This document shows positions 3,119 to 46,975 of a stretch of DNA of 64,000 nucleotides, in pieces. The stretch lies in NCBI RefSeq assembly GCF_044324875.1, contig NZ_CP172188.1; one strand, given 5' to 3'. Under the pieces are notes generated by a model that was not told the origin of the DNA, searched no databases, and worked only from the letters and a program-made list of their open reading frames with translations. The position numbers were made by a program, and so were the translations under genes. This stretch comes from Escherichia coli. GTDB taxonomy: Bacteria > Pseudomonadota > Gammaproteobacteria > Enterobacterales > Enterobacteriaceae. Numbering within the stretch: the first letter of the stretch is position 1; each line of letters begins with the position of its first letter.

Positions 3119-3697
3119 ATGCAGAAACAGAGCTATTGGGAGAAACAGAGACAAAAAGCCATGCAAAAATTGGCTGACCCAGCCTGGCGAGAGGAACAAA
3201 GGGCAAAGCGCCTTCAACAAGCTCAACGCCAGCAGCAGCGAGCGAGAGAAAAAGCCGCATCGCCTGAATATCGGCAAAAGAAAATTGAAAAAGCAAAGCA
3301 ATATGAACAGCGGAGAAAAGATAAAGCTGTATCCGCTCCGCCCAAAAAAACACGCACGTCACGCGGCCTGAAGGGCAGATCACTCACAGCCGATGAACGC
3401 CGGATACAGACCGCTATCGGTACTCTCCCCTGCATTGCCTGCCATATTCACGGGCAACATAGCCCAGTGGTATCCCTGCACCATATCTTCGGGAGAACGG
3501 CAGAGAACGCACATAAATATGTCCTCCCTTTGTGTAAATGGCACCACCAGTACGCAGCGCCAGCCGAGGTCCGAGAACAATATCCCTGGCTGGTCCCTGT
3601 TCATGCTGATGGAAAAATAGGCGGAAAAGCAGATTTCATACGGCACAATGCCGATGAAATGGCGTTGTATCAGATGGCGATTGAATTAATAAATTAG
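3119..3697 (+). CDS. Ref-family (DUF968-like) HNH-type nuclease-like protein
   Basis: 192 aa; basic low-complexity N-terminus then LPCIACHIHGQ...SLHHIFG...LPLCKWHH Cys/His motifs; GAGG Shine-Dalgarno. Confidence 0.5.
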   Translation: MQKQSYWEKQRQKAMQKLADPAWREEQRAKRLQQAQRQQQRAREKAASPEYRQKKIEKAKQYEQRRKDKAVSAPPKKTRTSRGLKGRSLTADERRIQTAIGTLPCIACHIHGQHSPVVSLHHIFGRTAENAHKYVLPLCKWHHQYAAPAEVREQYPWLVPVHADGKIGGKADFIRHNADEMALYQMAIELIN

Positions 3698-8379: not shown

Positions 8380-9915
8380 TCAGTGGTAGTAGCCCGGACC
8401 ACGCAGGTTTTCATGCTCTGAAGCATATGCCGGATGTTGTTCGCCCTGGCGGGATAATGGAAGCTCCAGGTTCTCCCGATGGTGACGCAGCAGATTGTCG
8501 ATAAAGCGTCTGTCAGGGGCGTTATAGTGCAGGGCAACGTAACAGGCCTTTTCCAGCCGTTCCGGGCCGTATTTTTTCTGAAGTGCCAGCAGCCCCAGAA
8601 CTGCACGATAAGCCAGTTCCGGATGGGGTTTTGCCTTCAGCATGGATTCAACCACCCGGCCTGTGGACGGGCCCGTACGTTTTCCCTGCTCGATCAGGCG
8701 TTCCGGTGTCCATGTCCCGTGCTGCCGGTGGCGCTCTGGCATGTGAAGCGGATTGGTTGTGTGTTTATATTCATGTGTGCTGCGCGGATGTTGCGCCACA
8801 CACTGCCCCTTGTGCCAGAGCTGTACCACCGACTGCCCCGCCTTCAGTGACAGACGCTGACCGACCAGTTCGTGTGGAACGGAGTACCAGTGACGGGCAT
8901 ATTCAACGTGGTAGTCAGGGCCAACCTTCACAGCTTTGTATTCCGTGTATTCATAAGGTGCCAGAGGCAGCGGAGAGAGTGCTGGCGCATCCAGTATGCG
9001 GAAGCGTTCTGCACGGGTTTGATTGCCGTACCCCTTCATTGGCCGGTTATTCATGTCTGTCAGTAACTCCCTAAGGCGCGCATTCAGCGCCCTGAGCGTG
9101 TGGAAGGTTTCATTACGGATGCGGGCAAGAAGCCATCGTTCAACGATGAGGACGCCGTTTTCTGCTTTTGGTTTATCTTTAGGTTTGCGTGGTCGGGCCG
9201 GGATGATAACCGTGCCATAGTGCTCAGCCAGTGCCTGATAACTGTCGTTGATGACAGGCTCATATCGATCGGCCTTTTTCACTGCGCTTCTGAGGTTATC
9301 GGGGATGAGCAGCTTCGGTACGCCGCCCAGGAAGGTCAGGCAACGGCTGTGGGCATTTAACCATGACATCATGTCCTGACCTTCGCACGCTTCAACGTAG
9401 GTATAGTTGGACGCCCCCATTACGGCCACGAAGATTGCCACGCGGCGTATCTCACCGGTGTCCGGATTAATAACAGGAACCGTAGGACCACAGAAGTCGA
9501 TAAAAAGCTTTTCGCCGGCACGATGCTCCTGGCGCATGGAGAGACGTCGCGTTTTTTTCCACTCCCGGTAGCAACGGCAGAAGTGCGAGTATCCCATCGC
9601 TTTGTTACCCGCCTGTGCCTTGTATTCCATCCACAACAGTTGCCGCGTCACACCTGGTTTTCTCATTTCCGTATCGAAGTACAACATGTCAGGCATTACA
9701 AGCTCTGATGCAAAGGTGTCTTTGGGCGGAAAAATGAGTTTCTCCAGCGTGTCATGGGATATATCAGCAGGTAATGGCCATGACAGAGAAGAGGCTTTGA
9801 AGCGGGCAAGAACCTCAAAAACGGTTGAGGCGCTGATGTGTAACGTCAGTCCGATACAACGGTTAGTCAGCTTCTTGTCGAACTTGAGCTGAAGGATCTT
9901 AAAACAGGTTTCCAT
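8380..9915 (-). CDS. istA: IS21-family transposase IstA
   Basis: ~511 aa from METCF... (AGGAG Shine-Dalgarno); N-terminal HTH and a DDE-type core; the ORF track extends to 10026. Confidence 0.85.
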   Translation of the reverse strand: METCFKILQLKFDKKLTNRCIGLTLHISASTVFEVLARFKASSLSWPLPADISHDTLEKLIFPPKDTFASELVMPDMLYFDTEMRKPGVTRQLLWMEYKAQAGNKAMGYSHFCRCYREWKKTRRLSMRQEHRAGEKLFIDFCGPTVPVINPDTGEIRRVAIFVAVMGASNYTYVEACEGQDMMSWLNAHSRCLTFLGGVPKLLIPDNLRSAVKKADRYEPVINDSYQALAEHYGTVIIPARPRKPKDKPKAENGVLIVERWLLARIRNETFHTLRALNARLRELLTDMNNRPMKGYGNQTRAERFRILDAPALSPLPLAPYEYTEYKAVKVGPDYHVEYARHWYSVPHELVGQRLSLKAGQSVVQLWHKGQCVAQHPRSTHEYKHTTNPLHMPERHRQHGTWTPERLIEQGKRTGPSTGRVVESMLKAKPHPELAYRAVLGLLALQKKYGPERLEKACYVALHYNAPDRRFIDNLLRHHRENLELPLSRQGEQHPAYASEHENLRGPGYYH

Positions 9916-10307
9916 AGTGCTCCTGGATTTTCTCTTTCTGGACATTGACGTCTCCACTGGTTTAAACACGGCAATGGAGACTGTGGTGAAAAGAGTTAAT
10001 TCCCGGAGTGACTGGCAGGATGCCAATCAATGATCGGAAGCATGCCAAATCGTGATCGATTGTGATGCCAAACTGTGATCGGAGATGGATGCCAAATCAT
10101 GATCGATTCGAATGCCAAACTGCGATCGATTCAGATGCCATTTTGCAGCCAAATTTCTGTCAAAAAATAAAATCCACAAAAAGTGGTTGACACTATTTTG
10201 GAAATCACAAACTGCACATAATCCATCGCGCTAACGGCTCCCGTTGAAGGTTCTTTTGACGATTAACTTTCAGCCGAAGCGCGGTAGGGAGTCATAACGC
10301 CAAAGCA

Positions 10308-37111: not shown

Positions 37112-38110
37112 TTAACTAACAATCCAGTCCATAGCAATAACATCCTCTGGAGCTAAATCAATAGCATGGATTTTCCCGTCACGGATGGTGCGCCAGTGCT
37201 TTCGTGATCCACCTTCGGGCCATACCCATACACCTTCAGGCCAGGAAGAACGACGACACACTGTTGCGTATCCAGTCCTGATCTTCTCTCTGACGGTATG
37301 CAGTGACAGATTATCTTTTGGGATTTCCGGTAAAGGATGATGGATTGCCTGAAACAGCCCCATCTTCGGATGATACCAGCGTTTGTTGCGTGGTTCTGCC
37401 TCCGACATAACCTGCTTGAAGGCTTTCCGGAAGGGGGCCAGGGCCACAATGGAGCGTCGGGCAAGCAAACCATCTGGAGTTAAAAACTCATGCGTATCGG
37501 TGGGAATCCGGTAAGCGTTGACAAGGTTGCGGCATTTGGCTTCAGTCAGGCCACATTTCGCCGCCAGCTGGCGGTAGCCAATGTAGCCTTCCGGCATATT
37601 GCCTTTCTTGATTTGCTCGACGGTTTCAGCGACTTTGGACACTTGTGCCGATACCTCGGCTACCTGGGCATTTACGGCGTTAATCCGGCGTTCATGTTCA
37701 AGATGCATTTGCGCCATTTCAGCCAGGATTTCGGCTTTTGATTTTAGCGGTGAGTGCTCCGGTATTAATTGCTTAATACGAAAATAGCTGTTTACCAGCT
37801 CACGTTGCACTTGCCAGGCCAGATCGTCATTGAATGACTTAACAATCATTAGATAACCGGACTCAGTGAACACGCGCAAACCGCGCGGGGGGACATTAAT
37901 TCCAAAAGTGTCAAAAACGCCCTTTTCAGAGTAATCAATAAGATAGGTATCTACACCATCAACAAAACGGTGCTTGTTACGATGGAAAGTTGTTTTAGCT
38001 AATCCTTTTGGTCGCTCGTGCACCTCATCAATCATCTCAAAGGTCACTACACGCTGATTTTTATATTCGAGAGTCGGGAATGGTTTGTTATTGATAGTTA
38101 CTGCGTCCAT
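37112..38110 (-). CDS. phage antirepressor-type protein with a KilA-N/ORF6N-like N-domain, module C
   Basis: Start at MDAVTINNKPFPTLEYKNQRVVTFEMIDEVHERPKG... (TAATG coupling with the upstream small ORF); C-terminal ~180 aa nearly identical to modules A and B; the ORF track extends to 38197. Confidence 0.6.
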   Translation of the reverse strand: MDAVTINNKPFPTLEYKNQRVVTFEMIDEVHERPKGLAKTTFHRNKHRFVDGVDTYLIDYSEKGVFDTFGINVPPRGLRVFTESGYLMIVKSFNDDLAWQVQRELVNSYFRIKQLIPEHSPLKSKAEILAEMAQMHLEHERRINAVNAQVAEVSAQVSKVAETVEQIKKGNMPEGYIGYRQLAAKCGLTEAKCRNLVNAYRIPTDTHEFLTPDGLLARRSIVALAPFRKAFKQVMSEAEPRNKRWYHPKMGLFQAIHHPLPEIPKDNLSLHTVREKIRTGYATVCRRSSWPEGVWVWPEGGSRKHWRTIRDGKIHAIDLAPEDVIAMDWIVS

Positions 38111-38325
38111 TAATGCACCTCCACGCAGTTCATTGGGCGGTTCCAGTAGGTCAAAACGTCCAGGGCATCGAGTTTGAAGCGAGCCGCAAAAATGCACGGA
38201 TCTGTAGGAAGAAATGAACGCGCTTCAGCCTCAGTAGCTGCCATTACGGTGATATAGGTGTGTTTTGTGCAGGAATAAAAGCGCCAGATGAATTCTGGAC
38301 GTGAGCAAGGATTGGCATTAACCAT
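38110..38325 (-). CDS. small protein upstream of the antirepressor (Icd-position ORF, module C)
   Basis: 71 aa; paralogue of 4509-4724. Confidence 0.65.
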   Translation of the reverse strand: MVNANPCSRPEFIWRFYSCTKHTYITVMAATEAEARSFLPTDPCIFAARFKLDALDVLTYWNRPMNCVEVH

Positions 38326-38566
38326 AGTTACGGCCTCATGTACAGGTTTAACAACCTGCTACCCGCTGTCAAACAGGTGGCAGGGCGTGACAGGGTTGAC
38401 AGACTGGCGTACATGAAACCAGCAGGCCGAAGCCTCCCCATCACGCCCCACCATAATTCGGGCGTAACGTGGTTTACGGACACAAAAATACCGCAATATC
38501 GGAAATCTGCGGATGTCCGCATGTACATTCAGGCTGTCAAACCTGGTCGCAGAATTTGCTACGACG
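38326..38566 (-). ncRNA. structured leader with a c4-like antisense regulator (module C)
   Basis: Minus-strand elements TTGACAG/GTACATG (targets) and CATGTAC/CTGTCAA (antisense) in the same arrangement as module B. Confidence 0.5.
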
Positions 38567-38571
38567 GCGTG

Positions 38572-38600
38572 AATATAAGCCTGAACATCTGGAAGATCAA
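38572..38600 (-). promoter_or_regulatory. sigma70-like promoter of module C
   Basis: Reverse complement of TTGATC-17-TATATT. Confidence 0.5.
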
Positions 38601-38653
38601 CATCAAATTGTTGATGATTTATTTTATTATTCATGTTTGAAAATTCAAATTAT

Positions 38654-38666
38654 TTTTCTAACACAA
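38654..38666 (-). promoter_or_regulatory. copy of dispersed motif upstream of the module C promoter
   Basis: TTTTCTAACACAA on the plus strand = TTGTGTTAGAAAA on the minus strand. Confidence 0.35.
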
Positions 38667-38789
38667 TACGAAAGGGAGTGAAAATTATTCTCCAGCGTTA
38701 ACCCAAACAAAATTATGTGTGCTGGAGGGTTGCTCATTTCCCGTCAGCACCCACGCCCTCAACGATAGCGGGTAGGGAAGGAAGCGCAA

Positions 38790-39088
38790 TTTTGAGGGCA
38801 TTTTTTACATCATCAATCCATATGTAATGAAGGCATTCTTTACACATTTCAATAATATCAATCAGTTAGCACAGTGAATGATAATAAAAAAGCGCAATAA
38901 GAATGCACGATACGCACGATATTGGTTGAGGGTAATTTTTACATAATCCTTATATATCAATATGTTATATAAAAACACAACTTACCAATAACAAGATACA
39001 TGCAATTAAGATGTAAAAATTGCCCTCAATTGCCGATCGTTAAGGGCAAATTCTACACCTTGAGAGGGGTGTAAAAATTGCCCTTAAG
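38790..39088. repeat. iteron cluster downstream of repE (copy-control / incompatibility-type repeats)
   Basis: Repeats of TGAGGGCA(A/T)TTTTTACA and inverted copies (for example 38791-38812, 38926-38946, 39010-39029, 39041-39088) in an AT-rich region. Confidence 0.55.
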
Positions 39089-39839
39089 ACTGCTGATAGG
39101 TAAATTTTATCCTGGTAACTTTGCCGCCTTCCGTCACCTCTGAGAAGACTATTTTCATTTTTGTATTTTTTTCAATCTCTGCTACAGCCTTCGTTAAAAA
39201 ACTTCTCTTAAATTCGGCATACCGCTGATAGCTTTTTGGTAACCCATAACGCTCCCGCATCCATTCGACGCCAAGTATGGCAAAGCCGCTTCCATCATCC
39301 TTCCTGTACTGGCATAAGGACTCATAAAGCCGCATAGAATAAGGATTTGTAAGGCGAGATACTTCGGTAAAATTCAGCCTTGTGAATCTCTTATCAAGCA
39401 GAGTAAAAAACGGCATGAGATATGGATTAAGATGAATAATGTAAGTCCCACGCCGTGGTGAATAGGCATCCTTAATCATCCAAGGATAAGACTCATAACT
39501 GTCTTCTGATTCGGTCGATTCATCAGGGTTATATATCGTAACTTTCTTCTCGCTAAGACCTGAAATGGCCTTACGAATATCCTTGCTGGCTTCAGCAGAG
39601 GGCAAATTATACATCTCTGCATATTCGTTGACCGTCAACTCACAGGCACCTGAACCAAGAACGCCATCCTTAGAAGCATAGCGAAGCCTTCCCACCACAA
39701 TAAACAACAGTCGCTTTTGGTCGCGAGTCAGGTGATAAGCAGCCTCCGTGATCTCATTGGCTTGTGCCAAACTACGACTAATAGGTGTCGCTGACTCAAT
39801 CAGGCTGACGGCTTTTGCTGTTAATTCCGCTCTGTTCAT
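39084..39839 (-). CDS. RepE-like iteron-binding replication initiator (mini-F type)
   Basis: ...EAAYHLTRDQKRLLFIVV..., FGLTSAEASKDIR-like NLPSAEASKDIRKAISG, YESYPWMIKDAYSPRRGTYIIHLNPYLMPFF, NPYSMRLYESLCQYRKDDGSG closely resemble F-plasmid RepE as I recall it; start at 39839 (ATG) or 39872 (TTG). Confidence 0.75.
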   Translation of the reverse strand: MNRAELTAKAVSLIESATPISRSLAQANEITEAAYHLTRDQKRLLFIVVGRLRYASKDGVLGSGACELTVNEYAEMYNLPSAEASKDIRKAISGLSEKKVTIYNPDESTESEDSYESYPWMIKDAYSPRRGTYIIHLNPYLMPFFTLLDKRFTRLNFTEVSRLTNPYSMRLYESLCQYRKDDGSGFAILGVEWMRERYGLPKSYQRYAEFKRSFLTKAVAEIEKNTKMKIVFSEVTEGGKVTRIKFTYQQS

Positions 39840-39863
39840 AACCCTGTGTGATCCTTCAAATGG

Positions 39864-40125
39864 TGAGGGCAATTTTTACATCACTTTGAGGGCAATTACT
39901 ACACCTTTTGAGGGCAAATCTTACACCTTCTGAGGGCAAATCTTACACCGATCGTATCTAATTGAGGGCAAATCTTACACCAGACTCCTCTACAGCCCGC
40001 GCCACTACTGGCTCCAGCGACGCCTAAAAAGGATCTAAAAAGGATTAAAAATGGAAAAAGGTTTATAAAAATACTCTGTGGATATGTGAGTAGCGTCACT
40101 TAAGGTGTAAAAATCACCCTCAATA
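39864..40125. repeat. origin-type iterons, AT-rich tract and DnaA-box-like site upstream of repE
   Basis: Five direct ~19-22-bp iterons TGAGGGCAAATCTTACACC (39864-39981), one inverted copy (40105-40123), A-rich tract 40030-40075, TGTGGATAT (~40078-40086) one mismatch from a DnaA box. Confidence 0.6.
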
Positions 40126-40227: not shown

Positions 40228-41049
40228 TTGAACATTCCAAAATTTCCATTGCCTTCCCGTCCTGAGACAGAAATTCAGTTCCACGCCCCTACCGTGAAGG
40301 ATGCGCTGAAATATTCTGACCTGAACCCGGCAGAAGATGAGGCAACTACTACAGAGTACCTTAACTCGATGCAGGATGGTGAAATTAACGACAGTGCTAA
40401 CTGGACAGTTCAGGATCGCAGAACTGCTCTTTGGTGGATATTTGTTAATTCGCGCCCCGATGCAGTAATGACCTACTCCTATGAGTGCAGTCACTGCGGT
40501 AATACGCATCATGCAGATATTAACCTAAGCGACCTGGCCCAAACAGTAGAAATACTCACTGTACCTCCTTACGTGAAAACCAACGTACCAGTAAATGGAG
40601 TACCAACTAACTGGATACTTAAACCATTAACCGGGAAAGGCGCGGAACTCCTTGAACGAATGCGAGCGTCACTTCCTGATATGAAAAGCCCCGAATACAG
40701 TGCTGGCGTGGCACGGATGCGGATTGCTGAACTCGCTTTATGCACGGCGCTTGAAGACGATCCGGAGGACTTCACGCAGGCCGCTAACCGACGCTTTGAC
40801 ATCATTGAAAGCATGGCGCTTGAAACCGAATTTACACCGCTTGTGGCTCGCATACAGCTTATGCAAAAAGACCTACGCCACGGCCTGAAGATGTCTATTG
40901 AGAGAGGCAAAAGCCGCCTGATCCTGCCTCCGCAACATTGCAAAAACGCTAAGGAGGGTGCAGACGTGACTACCACGCTGTACGTCACCTTTCACAATAG
41001 AGAGTTTATCCCATCAATTAGATCTGAATGGATGGCTAACCATTATTAA
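40228..41049 (+). CDS. hypothetical protein with a Cys/His cluster
   Basis: 273 aa; TTG start with strong GGAGGA Shine-Dalgarno; CSHCGNTHH. Confidence 0.45.
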   Translation: MNIPKFPLPSRPETEIQFHAPTVKDALKYSDLNPAEDEATTTEYLNSMQDGEINDSANWTVQDRRTALWWIFVNSRPDAVMTYSYECSHCGNTHHADINLSDLAQTVEILTVPPYVKTNVPVNGVPTNWILKPLTGKGAELLERMRASLPDMKSPEYSAGVARMRIAELALCTALEDDPEDFTQAANRRFDIIESMALETEFTPLVARIQLMQKDLRHGLKMSIERGKSRLILPPQHCKNAKEGADVTTTLYVTFHNREFIPSIRSEWMANHY

Positions 41050-41103
41050 CAACCTGACTCTGTATGGATATCAGCCCGTTAGTGACGTTGAACAATTGCC
41101 ACA

Positions 41104-44100
41104 ATGGCGAGCACTCCATATGTCAAAAGCCCTAGAAGAAAAATACAAAGCTCAAGCCGGGAAACGTTGATCGCCGCTGGCAAAAGAGAGGTTATTTTGA
41201 AAGAGAATAAAGACCGTATCGCAATAATTGACGCTATTCAGGGGGCGAGCACAAACGAACTTAAGGCTCTTGCTGAGATCAAAGACGCCATTCTCTCTGG
41301 TAGAGGGTCTATAACTCAACTTGGTGAAAATCAAGGTAAAGTAAGTCAAAGACTATCCCGTAGACGCATAGCAAGCGAACCCTATGTCTCTGGTGATGCC
41401 AAGAATACCCAAGCTAACCCATATATAAAACGCCTTCCGATGAAAAAAGGGAGGACGCAGGTCAACAACGGAGAAGAACGTCTCATTGTTGCAACCAACA
41501 CATCAGAGCGCGTTCATTTTGCGTCATCACGCCAGTCCGCCCAAAAGTTGAAAGGTTCTGTGCCAGTAGCCGCTAATTCTGCTCCTCTTGAACCACAATC
41601 CCCCCAAAGCCAAAAAGGACCGCTTCGGGATAGTAATGGACGCTTTGTATCCCAGAAAAACAACGAAGATATAGCCAGAAAAAAAGAATGGCAGAACGCA
41701 CGTAAGGCCGACGCCAAACTACAAGAAGGCTTCCTCCGGAAATTAGGCTCCATTATAGGGGTAGATGGCAATCAGTCTTCCAGTGAAGAGTCTTTAACAG
41801 ATGCCGCAGGTGTCGGCGCTGGTGGTCCGTTGTGGATGGCTGCTCGCGGCATGTACGACATTACTAAAGAGATCACAGGTAAAGCAGAATCTCTTAAAGA
41901 ATGGGTAGAAAAGGGGAAAGGTGAGGCTTTATCTTCGAAAGCGACATCACCAGCTATCACTTATCCGGCGGTGGTGAATACTCAAAAAGCAACCTCTGCA
42001 ACAGCATTTAATAATGCTGTTGAGACAAAATCAGCACAAGCAGTAGAAGAGCAAACAAAAATTCTTCAGACCAATGACAACAAAATAATTGATGGTCTGG
42101 AAAATGTCTCCGACGAAGTAGTTAAGCTACGCAAATCAGTATCTTCTGGGAATAAGTTCGGCTTAAGTGATCTCTGGAGAAATCGAGCAAGCAGAAGAAA
42201 TAAAATCAATATTGGCGATCAGGCTGGTAAAAATAAACGGAACAAACCGAAAAGGAAAGGTCGCAATCTGGGGAAAAATGCCCTTTCTGTTGGTGAAAAA
42301 GCCGCTGCCGGAACCGCTGCTGCTGGAGCTGGTGCCGGAGCTGCAAAGACTGTTAAAACAAAGGTTAGTAAAGCCAAAGACATCAGCACCACAAGCGACG
42401 CATCTAAGGGTATTGCTAAAGAAACAAAAAACACAGCAAAGGCAGTTAAGCCAGCAGGTGTTGTTGCCGAAGAGGCCACAATTAAAACAGGTGAAACTGT
42501 TGCAAAGAAAAAAACCGAATCCGTAGCCCTCAAAAGTGCTGCAAAAATAGGTGTTAAATCAGCTGCTTCTACAGCTGCAAGAGCTATCCCGATCATCGGA
42601 TCGCTGGCTATGGCGGGATATGACGCTATAGATGGTTACACTGATACAGATGCGCAAAAGGCAGCCTTTGGATTAAGTGACGATGATGCTGTATCCGAAC
42701 AGCAAAAAACGGCTTACGCAACAGCTAATGTGCTCGATATGGGGGGCTTGGTGTCGGGCGCAACGAACTTGATAGGGAAAGGAATTTCTGCGCTAGGATT
42801 TGAAAGAGCAGGTGAAAAACTTCAGAATTTTGATACCGGAGATATTGCTCGTGGTGTTAACGGCGCGGTAGATATCACCAAATCTGTTTTTGGTAACCTT
42901 AAGGATACATTTTTATCCACTGACGAAAACACGAAACAAGTAAAAAAAGCTGTTGAAGACGGCACAAAAAAAACTGTCGATGCGATTCATTCTCTTGGTG
43001 AACAATTACAAGGTGGGCGTAATGGCGAGGATGGAGTTGGTGAGCACGGGTATACTTCTCCAACTGAATTTAGTGCACCTGCCAACAACACCATTGCAGC
43101 GGATCTGAATATTGGCGGCAGCAACGCTAAAAACCGCAATTACCGAAATAATAATCTCGGCAATCTTGTTTTTGCCAACCAGGAAGGGGCGACGCTGGAA
43201 TCGCCAAATGCAAAAGGTGAACAACGTTTTGCGCGATTTAACACACCTGAAGAAGGGATCAGGGCACTGGCAAACCAGGTTTCCAGCTATTACAACGGCA
43301 CCAGTGCCGCAGCGGGATATCAGAAGTTACAGACGGTATCCAGCATCATTTCAAAATGGGCACCGCCAAATGAGAACAATACTAACCAATATATTGATAA
43401 CGTCAGTAAATATCTTGGTGTATCGCCTAATGAAAAAATAGATGTCAGCAAACCAGAAGTTATGACGCAATTAGTTCGTGCAATTGCGACGAAAGAAGGC
43501 GGAAATCCGGCAGTTAATAATGAGTTCATTAAGAACGCACTTGGAGCATTTAACACAAACACTGGTCGATGGGAGGGACAATTCTCTGACGAAACATTGG
43601 CGCGGATTAATAAAATTCAGAAAGAAAATGGTGGTCAGCTAATTGCCCGCGATTCGCAATATAGTGTTGGTCGCAAGGTAAAATATGCTAATGGAAAATC
43701 TCCAGCTCAACCAGTTTTGAATGCCGTTCCGACAGCAACACAACAGCCAATTGAGGTTGCACAACATGCCCAGGCAGTCAAAAAGCCACAAAAAACAGGT
43801 AACCAACCACAACCGATTAATCCAGAGAACGCTGATGTTAATACCGGCTCTCCATCGAGTTTGCTTGAGCGGTTAATCACAATAAATGAAAGCGGAATCA
43901 GTGGTGCAAGTAATTTATTTGGCGGCGCGGCTACCAGCCTTGCTGGAACAAGTCTGGACCTGGTAAAGGATTTTGCGTTAGCTACTTCGTTTGGTTCTAT
44001 ATCTTCGCTTTCCGAAAAAGCGAAAGGAATGGATCAGGCTCTTACTGAAAAGATATCCAGCTTAACCGGTAAATCTTTTGGATTTAAAAAAGCTTCTCAA

Positions 44101-45168
44101 GTGGCTGATATCGCAACAGCCATACAACAAAAACGCACTGTTAATCACGATACAGAAATCATTGATCTACTTCCGGGAGATCAAGTATCCCCTTCTACTC
44201 CGAAAACTCCACAGCAGGAGCAGGCTCTGGCAATCAACCAGGCTATGGAGGGCTTTTCGTCTGCAGCGCCAGCACCGAAAACCCCACAGCAGGAGCAGGC
44301 TCTGGCAATCAGCCAGGCTATGGCGGGCTTTTCGTCTGCAGCGCCAGCACCGAAAACCCCACAGCAGGAGCAGGCTCTGGCAATCAACCCGGCTATGGAG
44401 GGCTTTTCGTCTGCAGCGCCAGCACCGAAAACCCCACAGCAGGAGCAGGCTCTGGCAATCAGCCAGGCTATGGCGGGCTTTTCGTCTGCAGCGCCAGTAG
44501 TTACCTCTGGAAAACGAACTATCACGGCACCAAGTGATGTGCAGATTTATGACAACGGCTACAAGGTGGTTACAGGTGAGGATAAGAGCTTCTTTGGTTC
44601 GCTATTTGATTCCACGGTGTCAGGGCTTAAACAGACAGGAACCGCAGTAATTCCTGCCGTTGGCGATAACCTTTCACGACTTGTTGGGGGGATTGATAGT
44701 ACAGGGATATTGAACGATCTTGTAATGCAGTCTACTGGGCAGAATAGTGCGATTGCGCGAGCTATTAGCCCATTAACAAGAAATGTTGGAGACTGGTTGA
44801 ATGGGGGGATTCAACAAACCGCTAATAGCATTAGGGGAATAGCAACTGGTGCCAATAACGCCATATTTGGCTCTGCTTCAGCTGTGCAAGAACCTTTTCT
44901 TGCTATGCCGCCACAACTCCCTACTGTAACCGATCTCGCACGAAGCGGAATAAGACAACCATTAACTACTGACACTATAAATAACGATCCTGCTATGTTG
45001 AAGGCGCTGGATAACATCTGCTCTATCCTGAACGATCTGCTGAATGTGAACAAGAACAATACAAAAGGCGATCCGGATAATGTTGTCAAAACATCGCAGC
45101 CGCAGCCGCGACCACGTGCGAGCACAACTATTAATGACCAGTCGCTGGATGCTCTGCTTGAGGATTAA
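41104..45168 (+). CDS. tail tape-measure-like protein with an internal putative peptidoglycan-hydrolase-like region
   Basis: 1354 aa; Ala/Gly-rich helical stretches, internal 25-aa tandem repeats, and the region NRNYRNNNLGNLVFANQEGA...GGNPAVNNEF; located immediately upstream of baseplate genes. Confidence 0.55.
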   Translation: MASTPYVKSPRRKIQSSSRETLIAAGKREVILKENKDRIAIIDAIQGASTNELKALAEIKDAILSGRGSITQLGENQGKVSQRLSRRRIASEPYVSGDAKNTQANPYIKRLPMKKGRTQVNNGEERLIVATNTSERVHFASSRQSAQKLKGSVPVAANSAPLEPQSPQSQKGPLRDSNGRFVSQKNNEDIARKKEWQNARKADAKLQEGFLRKLGSIIGVDGNQSSSEESLTDAAGVGAGGPLWMAARGMYDITKEITGKAESLKEWVEKGKGEALSSKATSPAITYPAVVNTQKATSATAFNNAVETKSAQAVEEQTKILQTNDNKIIDGLENVSDEVVKLRKSVSSGNKFGLSDLWRNRASRRNKINIGDQAGKNKRNKPKRKGRNLGKNALSVGEKAAAGTAAAGAGAGAAKTVKTKVSKAKDISTTSDASKGIAKETKNTAKAVKPAGVVAEEATIKTGETVAKKKTESVALKSAAKIGVKSAASTAARAIPIIGSLAMAGYDAIDGYTDTDAQKAAFGLSDDDAVSEQQKTAYATANVLDMGGLVSGATNLIGKGISALGFERAGEKLQNFDTGDIARGVNGAVDITKSVFGNLKDTFLSTDENTKQVKKAVEDGTKKTVDAIHSLGEQLQGGRNGEDGVGEHGYTSPTEFSAPANNTIAADLNIGGSNAKNRNYRNNNLGNLVFANQEGATLESPNAKGEQRFARFNTPEEGIRALANQVSSYYNGTSAAAGYQKLQTVSSIISKWAPPNENNTNQYIDNVSKYLGVSPNEKIDVSKPEVMTQLVRAIATKEGGNPAVNNEFIKNALGAFNTNTGRWEGQFSDETLARINKIQKENGGQLIARDSQYSVGRKVKYANGKSPAQPVLNAVPTATQQPIEVAQHAQAVKKPQKTGNQPQPINPENADVNTGSPSSLLERLITINESGISGASNLFGGAATSLAGTSLDLVKDFALATSFGSISSLSEKAKGMDQALTEKISSLTGKSFGFKKASQVADIATAIQQKRTVNHDTEIIDLLPGDQVSPSTPKTPQQEQALAINQAMEGFSSAAPAPKTPQQEQALAISQAMAGFSSAAPAPKTPQQEQALAINPAMEGFSSAAPAPKTPQQEQALAISQAMAGFSSAAPVVTSGKRTITAPSDVQIYDNGYKVVTGEDKSFFGSLFDSTVSGLKQTGTAVIPAVGDNLSRLVGGIDSTGILNDLVMQSTGQNSAIARAISPLTRNVGDWLNGGIQQTANSIRGIATGANNAIFGSASAVQEPFLAMPPQLPTVTDLARSGIRQPLTTDTINNDPAMLKALDNICSILNDLLNVNKNNTKGDPDNVVKTSQPQPRPRASTTINDQSLDALLED
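44200..44500 (+). repeat. four in-frame tandem ~75-bp repeats inside the tape-measure-like gene
   Basis: Unit encodes APAPKTPQQEQALAI(N/S)QAM(E/A)GFSSA; read directly from the sequence. Confidence 0.8.
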
Positions 45169-45173
45169 TACTG

Positions 45174-45548
45174 ATGCTTTACGAAATAGACGCAAGACTT
45201 CAAACGAATGAGAGCGGTGTCATTATTGCAGAAGGAAGTACCGCAGCATGGATGGCCCGACTTGACGAGTGGCTACGAACCCCTGAAGGGAGTGTTTATG
45301 GTTTACCCTCTTGGGGGAGTCCAATGGAAGAATTTAAGCATGAACCATTCGGCTCTGAAACTTCGCACATAGTTGAAGTGGCTATTGAAGGGAGAATGAT
45401 GAAAAAACTACGACAAGACTTGCCAGGTTTGGATGTGCAGGGGATTCGTTGCACATCAATTTCTGAAGATTCTTTATTAATTAGTTTTTATGCGAAAGGT
45501 GGGAGCATGGATATTGTTATGCAGAAATCAAGTGGGGTGGGCGCGTGA
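45174..45548 (+). CDS. baseplate wedge protein (gp25/GpW-like)
   Basis: 124 aa; LRTPEGSVYGLPSWGSPMEEFKHEP resembles the GpW/gp25 motif. Confidence 0.45.
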   Translation: MLYEIDARLQTNESGVIIAEGSTAAWMARLDEWLRTPEGSVYGLPSWGSPMEEFKHEPFGSETSHIVEVAIEGRMMKKLRQDLPGLDVQGIRCTSISEDSLLISFYAKGGSMDIVMQKSSGVGA

Positions 45549-46975
45549 CGATTACAGAATTACTGGACAAATTTAACGCTAAGTTAAATGAAAACACATG
45601 GTGGTCACGATTTGTAAATAGTCAGTTTGTGCAGATGCACGCTATATTCGGATCACAGCTTATTTATATTGCCCGTACATTTGCAAGCCGCGGCCTCACT
45701 GAGGGACTTATTTCAACGGCTACGCGCCGCTCAAGTATTTTAGCGGTTGCTGAAGACCGTAGCTACGTAGGGCGATTTGTTAGTGCTTCATACGGAACAA
45801 CGTCTATAACCAATAAAACTGATCGGGATATTACATTACCAGCCGGGGCTGAATTGCTTGCCAATGACCAAACACCTTTGGCAATTATTAACAGTGTTGT
45901 AATTCCTGCTGGAGGAACTGTTTCTGGCGTAGAAACTAAACAGCATGAAGCTGTTAGCGTTACATTTGATATTGAGAAGGAAACTTTATTTCTGACATTG
46001 TTGCTTTCCAGAGAGTTAACAAAAGAAGTCTCTAGCCTGGATGTTTATGTTATTACAGATGGCGTAGAAGAAAAATGGACATATAACCCATTATTTAGAA
46101 TGTCCAGAGACAAGAGTAAGCACTATTCATTGGCATATAAACCTACAGAACAACTTGGAGTCAAGTTTGGTGATGGTTCTATGGGTATGATGCCTCCAGC
46201 AGGCTGTCAGGTTCGAATCGATGTTATGGCTAGCCTTGGCGACTATACTTTGGCTGAAGGACAAAAGTTAGAACCGGCTGGAAATATCGCTCAATATGTG
46301 GAGTCACTTGAGTTTAAAACTGATTCGATCATTACCGGTGGTAGTGGTATGGAAACTACAGAAGAAACTCGAAATCGTGCTCAGTATTATGTTGCATACG
46401 ATGAACAAGTGGTATGGGGCGGTGATTATCGCCAATTCATTCAGAATGTTGTTCATGGAACTTCATGGTTGAACGTTTGGGGCGAAGCGTTACAAGAGAA
46501 AATAACTGGGTTTGACGTTCGAAACATCAACAAAATTTTCTTTTGCGGACATAAGCCGGGTGTAAGCCAGGCTCAGCTAAAATCAGAAATACTGAAAGCT
46601 CTAGAGAATGTTCCAAATGAGTTGAACAAGCGGTTCGAGTATGTAGATACAAATGAACAGCCATTTACTATAAATTTTACAGGTATTGCACGTAAAAATG
46701 TTCTGATAGACGACGCTCAAAATGCTATTAAAGCAGCATTGGAAGATAATTTTGGTCGTGATTCGTCATCATTTAGTTTATTACTACAGAGTGATGATGA
46801 TTCTCAGCAATGTTATGCACAGGTAAAAGTTAAAGATATTTGGCGAGTAATAGAATCGCTGGATATGTTTCTCTCTTATGACATAACAATACAAAATATG
46901 AAAGATGCAGTTTACTTTAATGACTTCATTTATCTTGACGTGAAATCTTCCACGTTCAGCATTTCTTACCCGTAA
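45545..46975 (+). CDS. baseplate J-like protein
   Basis: 476 aa, directly after the gp25-like gene with overlapping start; order and size typical. Confidence 0.4.
   Translation: MTITELLDKFNAKLNENTWWSRFVNSQFVQMHAIFGSQLIYIARTFASRGLTEGLISTATRRSSILAVAEDRSYVGRFVSASYGTTSITNKTDRDITLPAGAELLANDQTPLAIINSVVIPAGGTVSGVETKQHEAVSVTFDIEKETLFLTLLLSRELTKEVSSLDVYVITDGVEEKWTYNPLFRMSRDKSKHYSLAYKPTEQLGVKFGDGSMGMMPPAGCQVRIDVMASLGDYTLAEGQKLEPAGNIAQYVESLEFKTDSIITGGSGMETTEETRNRAQYYVAYDEQVVWGGDYRQFIQNVVHGTSWLNVWGEALQEKITGFDVRNINKIFFCGHKPGVSQAQLKSEILKALENVPNELNKRFEYVDTNEQPFTINFTGIARKNVLIDDAQNAIKAALEDNFGRDSSSFSLLLQSDDDSQQCYAQVKVKDIWRVIESLDMFLSYDITIQNMKDAVYFNDFIYLDVKSSTFSISYP

Follow-up and report, generated by a model that had tools for sequence, protein, structure and literature searches.

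Whether natural variation in a protein ruler can alter the length of a phage tail is the question raised by a tandem repeat array inside the sit gene of the 64-kb stretch of DNA analysed here (the window). Control of tail length by a protein ruler is textbook knowledge, derived from engineered mutants in a few phages. In P1-type phages, which have a very long contractile tail, such control would presumably be exerted by Sit.

Tandem repeats in the sit gene

Four tandem 75-bp repeats had been predicted at 44200-44500 in a gene described as tape-measure-like, and four head-to-tail units with 95% identity were indeed found at 44200-44499. Tandem Repeats Finder (TRF) placed the array at 44200-44497 (period 75, 4.0 copies, 95% matches, 0 indels, score 554). 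The only matches in the window to a 37-nt core of the unit are at 44200, 44275, 44350 and 44425; as compared with these 4 matches, 0 were expected and 0 were seen in 100 dinucleotide-preserving shuffles. Unit 1 begins at codon phase 0 of the open reading frame (ORF) at 41104-45168, and the array is made up as follows.

44200-44499, + strand: in-frame array of four units of 75 bp (25 aa) each, Sit aa 1033-1132 (TRF, core count and unit typing)
44200-44274, + strand: unit 1, which translates to PKTPQQEQALAINQAMEGFSSAAPA, preceded by SPST instead of APA
44275-44349, + strand: unit 2, ...ISQAMAGFSSAAPA, of the 'B' type that is commonest among close relatives
44350-44424, + strand: unit 3, ...INPAMEGFSSAAPA, with a private Q to P replacement
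44425-44499, + strand: unit 4, ...ISQAMAGFSSAAPV, in which the FSS tripeptide is kept

These translations agree with the unit consensus given in the original prediction, which had missed the replacement in unit 3 and the closer pairing of units 1/3 and 2/4. The Q to P replacement is due to a change of CAG to CCG at 44390, and is found in no other unit of the typed loci. In the nomenclature used for typing units across relatives, the array is D-B-J-B'. The terminal unit in most relatives is without FSS and reads ...QAMAG-AAPVV, whereas unit 4 of the window includes this tripeptide. The units of the window differ from one another at 1-4 positions, and the closer pairs are units 1/3 and 2/4, with 2 and 1 differences, respectively, as compared with 3-4 in the other pairs. 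Hence, as judged by the sequence, the latest event in this array looks like a 150-bp duplication of two units. The G+C content of the array is 61-62%, as compared with ~45% in the flanks, owing to its Ala, Pro and Gln codons.

Two ORFs in other frames extend across the array, at 44078-44500 (+) and 44181-44525 (-), and are by-products of the repeat. The possibility that the array acts at the DNA level, as iterons of RepB, which is located nearby, or as binding sites of another kind, was considered and rejected as unsupported, given the confinement of the unit to this one place in the window and the reading frame that is always kept.

The sit gene and its product

The domains of the protein that carries the array, and the genes located on either side, are as follows.

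40228-41049, + strand: pmgB homologue, directly upstream of sit (phrog_1854, 4e-134)
41104-45168, + strand: sit homologue, 1354 aa, D6-type 'tail injection transglycosylase', putative tape measure (phrog_7182)
42490-42957, + strand: Gly/hydrophobic module of Sit, aa 463-618, RAIPIIG...ANVLDMGGLVSG (phrog_2533/24683/21630, tblastn, BLASTP)
43126-43551, + strand: muralytic domain of Sit, aa 675-816, of the endolysin-7q47 / T7-like internal-virion-protein type (PDB sequence search, tblastn)
44500-45165, + strand: C-terminal domain of Sit, aa 1133-1354, nearly invariant in alignment A2
45174-45548, + strand: pmgA, directly downstream of sit (phrog_1896, D6 annotation)
45545-46975, + strand: bplA, baseplate wedge, downstream of pmgA (phrog_1369, D6 annotation)

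Residues 32-1354 of the product match positions 1-1228 of 1228 of phrog_7182 (E=0, 2323 bits), which places the protein over its full length in the P1 Sit family, and the gene is 88% identical in nucleotide sequence to orf40 of phage D6. The gene order pmgB-sit-pmgA-bplA-16-R-S is that of P1 and D6, as expected for this family. In addition, sit is the longest non-fibre gene of the tail module, and the window includes no other ORF of >700 aa except that for tail fibre S. P1 Sit (1140 aa) and D6 orf40 (1260 aa) share with the window Sit the same PHROG family over the full length, the gene order and the extreme C-terminus but, unlike it, neither includes a tandem repeat.

The Gly/hydrophobic module of the window Sit recurs in P1 Sit and, in a 66.7-kb phage, in a protein of the virion interior ('inside capsid'), as supported by tblastn (H106) and by BLASTP of P1 Sit against P0138, a plasmid protein of Nissabacter sp. 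SGAir0207. The muralytic domain matched 7q47_A (1.5e-15) and 9vvp_L (3.6e-13) in the PDB sequence search, and endolysins and internal virion proteins by tblastn. It had no match in Pfam, and so is not the Pfam SLT domain (PF01464), which is present in P1 Sit at 3.4e-26; Sit of the window/D6 type thus includes a different muralytic domain. The extreme end of the protein, ...TSQPQPRPRASTTINDQSLDALLED, resembles the ends of P1 Sit and P0138, and the C-terminal domain presumably anchors Sit in the baseplate hub. The product of the pmgB homologue weakly resembles T4 gp51 (Pfam T4_baseplate, 23.8 bits, below the cutoff of 24.5), and PmgB was proposed as a tape-measure chaperone in P1 (PMC9024508).

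In the GenBank record of P1, sit is described as encoding a structural injection transglycosylase and 'putative tail ruler', and Sit is treated as the P1 tape measure in two papers (PMC9024508, PMC12810830). P1 Sit was found in the virion by mass spectrometry and predicted to be the tape-measure protein (TMP), and Gonzales et al. placed the ruler in its helical N-terminal two-thirds (PMC9024508). In the cryo-EM study of P1, which reports 52 tube and 53 sheath rings and lists Sit as the TMP, Sit appears as low-resolution density in the hub and was not resolved, and contracted particles no longer contain the TMP (PMC12810830). Neither a deletion experiment on Sit nor a length-proportional test for P1 or D6 Sit was found in the literature consulted. 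Sit is in all likelihood the tape measure of P1-type phages, a role accepted by inference only. The description of the gene as tape-measure-like is therefore backed by phrog_7182, the P1/D6 gene order, the size of the ORF and the P1 literature, but finds no backing in Pfam or NCBIfam, where the whole protein had no match, curated tape-measure models included. A match to phrog_2276 'tape measure' covers only the muralytic domain (aa 665-841).

Unit number in related elements

The original prediction envisaged variation in copy number, and this was borne out by comparison across relatives. Near-identical relatives contain 0 (phage D6), 1, 2, 3, 4, 5, 6, 8, 9, 11, 14 or 17 units, and the rest of sit is 93-99.6% identical among records with 0-17 units. 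The start-to-start spacing of the units is exactly 75 bp in all typed relatives, the genes are all in frame, and the arrays differ in the type and order of their units besides the number. A census of 120 cluster representatives from the protein database gave 0 to 6 units, and the complete plasmid records fetched (PLSDB, RefSeq complete genomes) reach 17. The array thus has the features of a coding-region VNTR, namely highly identical copies arranged head to tail, units whose length is divisible by three, a varying number of units and conserved flanks, and represents a minisatellite inside sit of a D6-like (P1-related) myophage kept as a plasmid. There is hardly any room for doubt that the repeat and its polymorphism are real. 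No prior description of polymorphism in the sit array was found in literature searches, and D6-like prophages are said only to diverge 'in the sit sequence' (PMC6799933).

D6 is a plaque-forming phage and has no unit; hence, the module behaves as a dispensable spacer and not as an essential motif. Many megablast matches ended where the array does, at query position 3394. A mosaic junction at this position was rejected, as the C-terminal domain of these records is unchanged on translation, and the matches stopped there because BLAST split the longer arrays.

Reliability of the unit counts

Two related isolates with 92,487-bp plasmids have 17 matching places each, and the array typed from one of them (L011) consists of 17 units. 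Paired records from the same strain or from related ones are in agreement for the 89,248-bp, 92,643-bp and 92,487-bp pairs, and the last of these indicates that the assembly of long arrays can be reproducible.

Strain Ec-050 is represented by five assemblies, made from its serial subcultures, which gave 11, 9, 5, 5 and 5 units. Across 2700+2200 nt of flank, the four records compared had no mismatch, the T5-ESBL record shares the protein accession of T20, and the plasmid lengths differ by exactly the array sizes. Three of the five assemblies give the shortest path, DEAFG, and the 9-unit array is not a sub-path of the 11-unit array. As the counts differ, the number obtained from a single assembly is a snapshot. 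The series of 11, 9, 5, 5 and 5, which was read from assemblies, may be due to real change, heteroplasmy or assembly error. According to the original prediction, a repeat number that differed in raw reads would indicate an assembly artefact. Counts that differ among assemblies, or among reads, may instead come from real instability within one strain, so that such a finding would not separate the two cleanly.

It is quite improbable that the array is real but mis-sized, with the number four and part of the variation among records arising from collapsed or mis-bridged repeats. The ceiling of 6 units among protein-database representatives, as compared with 17 in complete plasmids, would fit short-read collapse, and the exact 1354-aa protein (WP_395762629.1) is recorded from a single contig only; the private replacement in unit 3, the three different arrays from five Ec-050 assemblies and the recurrence of the shortest path among them point the same way. 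Against mis-sizing stand the differences among arrays in unit type and order, the agreement of duplicate records, the constant spacing of 75 in genes that are all in frame, and a 9-unit Ec-050 array that does not nest in the 11-unit one. Among the Ec-050 subcultures, plasmid lengths as assembled shift with the array in 75-bp steps, and this would produce apparent plasmid differences in genomic epidemiology. Assemblies at the sit array are not to be trusted without spanning reads.

Related repeats in other Sit lineages

Two further Sit lineages, both divergent, also contain repeats of a related helix core, TP.(L/Q)Q(E/Q)(Q/N)(I/A)(Q/L)A(V/I).(D/Q)A, at the corresponding position; they are represented by Nissabacter P0138 with 7 units of 25 aa and by P0145-P0149 with 2-3 units of 40-41 aa. 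In a HMMER search with three units against 1.84 billion representatives, the matches were mostly unrelated low-complexity repeat proteins, and the only relevant one was P0138. Like the window Sit, P0138 and P0145-P0149 have the array after the muralytic domain and include a Pro/Ala linker. P0138 further has the 25-aa unit length in common with the window Sit. As compared with the window Sit, identity in these lineages is only 37% in the alignable core. Unlike the near-identical units of the window, those of P0138 and P0145-P0149 have diverged from one another, and the duplications are therefore older there. A correspondence of 25 aa to one tube ring as a general design rule was rejected, given the 40-41-aa units of the related arrays.

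The recurrence of the core at one position in these lineages could indicate a multivalent module that binds the tube lumen, the chaperone PmgB or some component of the host envelope, with copy number tuning avidity and not length. The unit variants, read by eye from the unit list, include 7 non-synonymous and 5 synonymous variable sites, which is fewer non-synonymous changes than neutrality would predict and agrees with such a role. However, the core was sought in D6, P1 and 45 other Sit homologues and was absent, hence it is dispensable. The substitutions seen also fall on the helix itself (N/S, E/A, L/I, Q/P). A binding module is a very improbable explanation of the array.

Possible effect on tail length

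The best reading of the array, held with even confidence, is a recombination-prone in-frame repeat that lengthens a tape measure. Gain and loss of units would come about when identical units undergo unequal homologous recombination or give rise to replication slippage, as exemplified by a loss between two identical 'A' units and by 150-bp two-unit duplications. Each unit would add 25 residues, consisting of a Pro/Ala-rich linker and a short helix (QQEQALAINQAME), at a point that follows the muralytic domain and precedes the conserved C-terminal domain, the presumed hub anchor. The helix-plus-linker picture is a weak one, as the AlphaFold2 model of aa 919-1354 from an 11-sequence alignment is unusable (mean pLDDT 34; range 26-44). 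Such low values agree with an extended and mainly helical protein that has no stable globular fold by itself, but do not diagnose one. With the tape measure stretched inside the tube from hub to terminator, the ruler would gain ~3.75 nm per unit if helical, and up to ~4.7 nm at the P1 average of ~1.9 Å per residue. One unit would then correspond to about one tube/sheath ring, and the natural range to ~16 rings or ~30% of a P1-type tail.

That tail length follows copy number may prove right or wrong with equal chance, and this step rests on analogy with lambda gpH, T4 gp29 and the TMP of TP901-1. In the length mutants of lambda gpH and T4 gp29, internal non-terminal segments contributed to length. 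The TP901-1 TMP gene, like the window sit, includes repeats inside the ruler; its in-frame deletions and duplications changed tail length linearly, loss or gain of repeats giving proportionally shorter or longer tails, and the repeats were proposed to facilitate such changes (Mahony et al. 2016, PMC5099701). In TP901-1 the repeats have diverged from one another, are 11/18 aa long with Trp/Phe as markers and were altered by engineering, whereas those in sit are 25-aa units, near-identical in DNA, that lie behind a muralytic domain, belong to a contractile tail and range naturally from 0 to 17. The TP901-1 pattern of Trp/Phe every 11 or 18 residues was not found in the window unit, which has one Phe and no Trp.

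Alternatively, the array may be a flexible, largely disordered linker outside the ruler that folds back or compresses, with length set by the N-terminal helical part and copy number near-neutral. Any function would then be exerted after ejection, for example by setting how far the C-terminal part extends across the periplasm. This possibility is the less likely one, and several observations count against the ruler reading. The array lies in the C-terminal third of the protein, whereas the proposed P1 ruler consists of the N-terminal two-thirds, which are helical (PMC9024508). Its region is Pro/Ala/Ser-rich, with the low pLDDT given above, and may be compressible slack. Near-identical elements contain 0 to 17 units with no sign of a compensating change, and the number may therefore hardly matter. 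D6 is viable with none, and Sit homologues range from 1017 to 1568 aa. In the Ec-050 assemblies, the arrays also appear to have shortened during subculture on plates, a condition that does not select for tails. On the other hand, neutrality as a prophage says nothing about the virion. Moreover, P1 Sit would need ~1.9 Å per residue over its whole length to account for 54 tube-type rings, and this leaves little slack. In the tape measures tested by deletion or duplication, namely lambda gpH, T4 gp29 and that of TP901-1 (PMC5099701 for TP901-1), internal segments, including non-repeat ones, contributed to the length.

Phage-plasmids that are otherwise near-identical, and often inducible, provide a natural series of alleles with 0 to 17 units, the longest array amounting to 425 residues. 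Sheath-ring counts across this series would bear both on Sit as a ruler and on the contribution of its C-terminal third.

The array resembles bacterial coding-region VNTRs in its near-perfect head-to-tail units, unit length in a multiple of three, rapid gain and loss in near-clonal relatives and concerted evolution of units. It differs from these minisatellite or contingency-type loci in being located in a structural gene of a phage-plasmid and in having all alleles in frame, with no on/off switch. It is decidedly unlikely that the sit array acts as a fast-mutating contingency-type locus of the phage-plasmid, with recombination among its units continually generating virions that vary in tail length and/or C-terminal reach. 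If it did, the element would hedge its bets among hosts whose envelopes or capsules differ in thickness, and selection for an expandable site would account for the repetition of a related helix core in three divergent lineages of Sit.

A four-unit array in the sit gene of a D6-like phage-plasmid

The ORF encoding the window's homologue of phage P1 Sit (1354 aa) has a full-length match (E=0) to phrog_7182 ('tail injection transglycosylase'). Upstream of it are homologues of sheath, tube (BplB-like), Tub, PmgC and PmgG, and its surroundings are as follows.

37112-38197 (-), anti-repressor-like gene, between tub and pmgB
39084-39872 (-), RepB-type plasmid replication initiator, between tub and pmgB
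40228-41049, PmgB-like
41104-45168 (+), sit homologue
45174-45548, PmgA-like
45545-46975, baseplate BplA, followed by gene 16, R and tail fibre gene S

The sit DNA shares 88% identity with Escherichia phage D6 orf40 ('similar to P1 gene sit'), and 93-99.6% with 'transglycosylase' genes on ~90-kb non-mobilizable plasmids of E. coli, Shigella and Salmonella. The window thus belongs to a D6-like phage-plasmid related to P1. The exact Sit protein was found in one record only, WP_395762629.1, on a 97,923-bp contig. The minus-strand genes interrupt the tail operon in the tub-pmgB interval (37112-39872), where D6 has a rep gene only. A transposase-like ORF (8380-10026, -; phrog_1157, 4e-91) also lies inside the phage-plasmid.

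The original prediction of four tandem 75-bp repeats inside this gene was borne out. Tandem Repeats Finder returned one strong array only, at 44200-44497 (period 75, 4.0 copies, 95% matches, no indels, score 554). A 37-nt unit core recurs at intervals of exactly 75 nt, four copies in all, and has no other match in the 64-kb window; 100 dinucleotide-preserving shuffles gave 0 matches. The first unit begins in codon phase 0 of the ORF, and the units translate as PKTPQQEQALAI(N/S)(Q/P)AM(E/A)GFSSAAP(A/V). Unit 1 is closest to unit 3 (2 differences) and unit 2 to unit 4 (1 difference), against 3-4 differences in the other pairs, which suggests that the latest expansion duplicated two units, 150 bp, at once. 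A Q->P change is private to unit 3. The G+C content of the array, 61-62% against a background of ~45%, is expected from its Ala, Pro and Gln codons. Open frames crossing the array in other frames, at 44078-44500 (+, 140 codons) and 44181-44525 (-, 114 codons), are unsupported as genes and exist only because the repeat has no stop codons there.

Copy number and unit order among relatives

Units were counted in sit translated from 18 fetched relatives, plus the window. The variation in repeat number that the original prediction had envisaged was found, with 0 to 17 units per array.

Units in sit of the window, phage D6 and relatives' plasmid records (L numbers), with unit order in brackets for some arrays; letters and * are unit types
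0: phage D6; L013
1: L006
2: L003, L007
3: L002 (D-B-*)
4: window (D-B-J-B'), L004, L005
5: L009 (D-O-F-B-*); three records of strain Ec-050
6: L012
8: L008 (D-N-B-F-B-F-B-*)
9: L010
11: L014
14: L016
17: L011 (G-A-A-C-A-C-E-A-A-C-E-A-E-A-A-C-*)

Start-to-start spacing of the units is exactly 75 in every case. Arrays vary in unit type and order and not in number alone, which is the pattern expected of repeated unequal exchange. The array is thus a hypervariable VNTR, always in frame, with both unit number and unit order polymorphic. In a large protein collection, 54 of 120 cluster representatives have no unit, and one to six units are present in 8, 22, 16, 8, 10 and 2, respectively. The array region is present in 77 of 5426 complete E. 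coli genomes, plasmid-borne in all 77, and the unit was found in four IMG/VR contigs.

The terminal unit of most relatives is degenerate and lacks FSS (…QAMAG-AAPVV). The window has the rarer state with FSS (GFSSAAPVV), shared with the Sit homologues P0009 and P0058 and consistent with a 66-nt deletion that fused a full unit with the terminal one. Variable sites among the 18 distinct units, counted by eye from the unit list, include ~7 non-synonymous and 5 synonymous, which suggests that constraint is mild at most.

That tape-measure genes can hold tandem repeats, and that such repeats bear on tail length, is already known. No description of the sit array polymorphism was found in the searchable literature; divergence 'in the sit sequence' is mentioned for D6-like prophages (PMC6799933).

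Array differences within strain Ec-050

Five RefSeq assemblies represent one ST167 strain, Ec-050. PMC11039899, with reference to Moser et al. 2022, describes 20 propagation steps on agar, over which the strain was 'genetically highly stable' (0-9 SNVs).

Arrays in the Ec-050 assemblies
T0: 11 units, DEACBAHBAFG
T5-MAC: 9 units, DEAACBAFG
T5-ESBL: 5 units, protein accession identical to that of T20; order untyped
T20-MAC: 5 units, DEAFG
T20-ESBL: 5 units, DEAFG

Flanks were compared in four of the assemblies, T0, T5-MAC and both T20, and had 0 mismatches over 2700 nt before and 2200 nt after the array; the fifth, T5-ESBL, has the T20 protein accession. Plasmid lengths of 90446, 90296 and 89996 bp differ exactly by array size; the 150-450 bp separating these plasmids (L014, L010, L018, L015, L017) lie entirely within the sit array. 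Read from its unit order, DEAFG is the product expected when the first of the identical 'A' units recombines with the last. No single step leads from the 11-unit array to the 9-unit array. Compared through assemblies alone, the differences may reflect real recombination, pre-existing heteroplasmy or loop-dropping by the assembler. Duplicate or sister records agree (an 89,248-bp pair, a 92,643-bp pair, and a 92,487-bp pair whose two members each have 17 matching places). The count of four in the window is a snapshot, and differing counts in reads alone would not by themselves prove an assembly artefact. The array hence calls for caution when plasmids are compared.

Sit as probable tape measure and a possible effect of copy number

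By size and position, Sit is the sole tape-measure candidate in the window. In the P1 GenBank record, sit carries the description 'putative structural injection transglycosylase; putative tail ruler'. Gonzales et al. 2022, who detected Sit in P1 virions by mass spectrometry, argued that the tape measure is Sit and not gp6, with pmgB a possible chaperone (PMC9024508). In the 2026 P1 cryo-EM study, Sit is listed as TMP of a tail with 52 tube and 53 sheath rings, is not resolved beyond low-resolution hub density, and is gone from contracted particles (PMC12810830). The PmgB homologue matches Pfam T4_baseplate (T4 gp51) at 23.8 bits, below the cutoff of 24.5, and phrog_150 'baseplate hub'. This weak likeness fits a hub/ruler assembly neighbourhood and hints that PmgB is a hub-assembly factor, not a head protein as its PHROG name implies. 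The 'tape-measure-like' label given to the gene is reasonable on P1 annotation and papers, size and position. Against it, no Pfam or NCBIfam model matched the window Sit, and its PHROG 'tape measure' match covers the muralytic domain only. On balance, Sit is probably the ruler.

Tape measures span the tail tube from hub to terminator, the ring rise in T4-type tails is ~4 nm, and length mutants of lambda gpH and T4 gp29 shift tail length. The same effect was seen in TP901-1, where TMP deletions and a duplication changed tail length linearly and the authors suggest that repeats naturally favour such events (PMC5099701). In sit, unequal recombination or slippage between the often-identical 75-bp units would add or remove units of 25 residues each in the stretch that separates the muralytic domain from the conserved C-terminal domain. 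On the assumption that Sit reaches from hub to terminator inside the tube, a unit would contribute ~3.75 nm as alpha-helix, or ~4.7 nm at the P1 average of ~1.9 Å per residue (1140 residues over 52+2 tube-type rings at ~4 nm). Both estimates would give ~1 ring per unit and up to ~16 rings across the natural range. The main rival is that the Pro-rich, probably disordered C-terminal segment is slack outside the ruler, which Gonzales et al. put in the N-terminal two-thirds (PMC9024508); an AlphaFold2 model (mean pLDDT 34) is too poor to decide between ruler and slack. We give an effect of copy number on tail length an even chance. The array offers a natural set of alleles with which the ruler could be tested in a contractile tail of great length.

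Mosaic structure of Sit and related modules in other lineages

Compared with P1 Sit, D6-type Sit is mosaic. A Gly/hydrophobic module and the extreme C-terminus are common to both, whereas the muralytic domain is PF01464 SLT in P1 and of endolysin-7q47/T7-like internal-virion-protein type in the window (aa 675-816; 43126-43551), where it resembles endolysin 7q47, endolysins of several other phages and T7-like internal virion protein D. The 'transglycosylase' label on D6-type Sit is an annotation transfer; the window Sit has no Pfam SLT match. Residues 474-617 (42520-42957) are 43% identical to 'protein inside capsid D' encoded by a phage of 66.7 kb; an ejection-protein module is therefore common to the tape measure and to internal virion (ejection) proteins of other phages.

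The family has two alternative N-termini (41064-41180). The window, L004, L010-L012 and the Ec-050 records start at ATG 41104 (MASTPYVK…), and D6, L002 and L005 start 40 nt upstream in a different frame (MDISPL…), which enters the main frame via a 1-nt indel at window position 41174 and is closed in the window by TAG at 41133-41135. A second indel-prone region, a low-complexity Ala/Gly/Lys stretch (42316-42344; Sit aa ~359-432), contains a 12-nt micro-repeat, GCTGCTGCCGGA x 2.4, and differs by 5-18 residues among relatives.

A three-unit query against 1.84 billion representatives gave one relevant match, P0138. This Sit homologue of 1095 aa (phrog_7182, 1e-151) is encoded on a Nissabacter sp. 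SGAir0207 plasmid of 101,864 bp and shares 37% identity with the window Sit across the alignable core. P0138 has seven units of the same size, 25 aa, after its muralytic domain (APAAPATPLQEQIQAVYDAEHGKAS). In the related P0145-P0149, the units number two or three, are 40-41 aa long and have the core TP.TLQQNIQAVADAQ. Neither D6 nor P1 has the unit core, nor does any of 45 further Sit homologues (869-1568 aa). It follows that a putative helix-plus-Pro-linker module recurs at the array site in at least three divergent lineages. The module is dispensable, since the unit-less D6 is a plaque-forming phage, and its lack of a fixed period speaks against 'one unit equals one ring' as a strict design rule. 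The C-terminal thirds of P0145, P0146, P0165 and P0171 contain a second, longer duplicated motif, (Y/F)..(A/G)..LP…G….(K/L)..GG…(A/R)N(A/T)EGLRHQ, in two copies per protein, another sign that this third of Sit may evolve by internal duplication.
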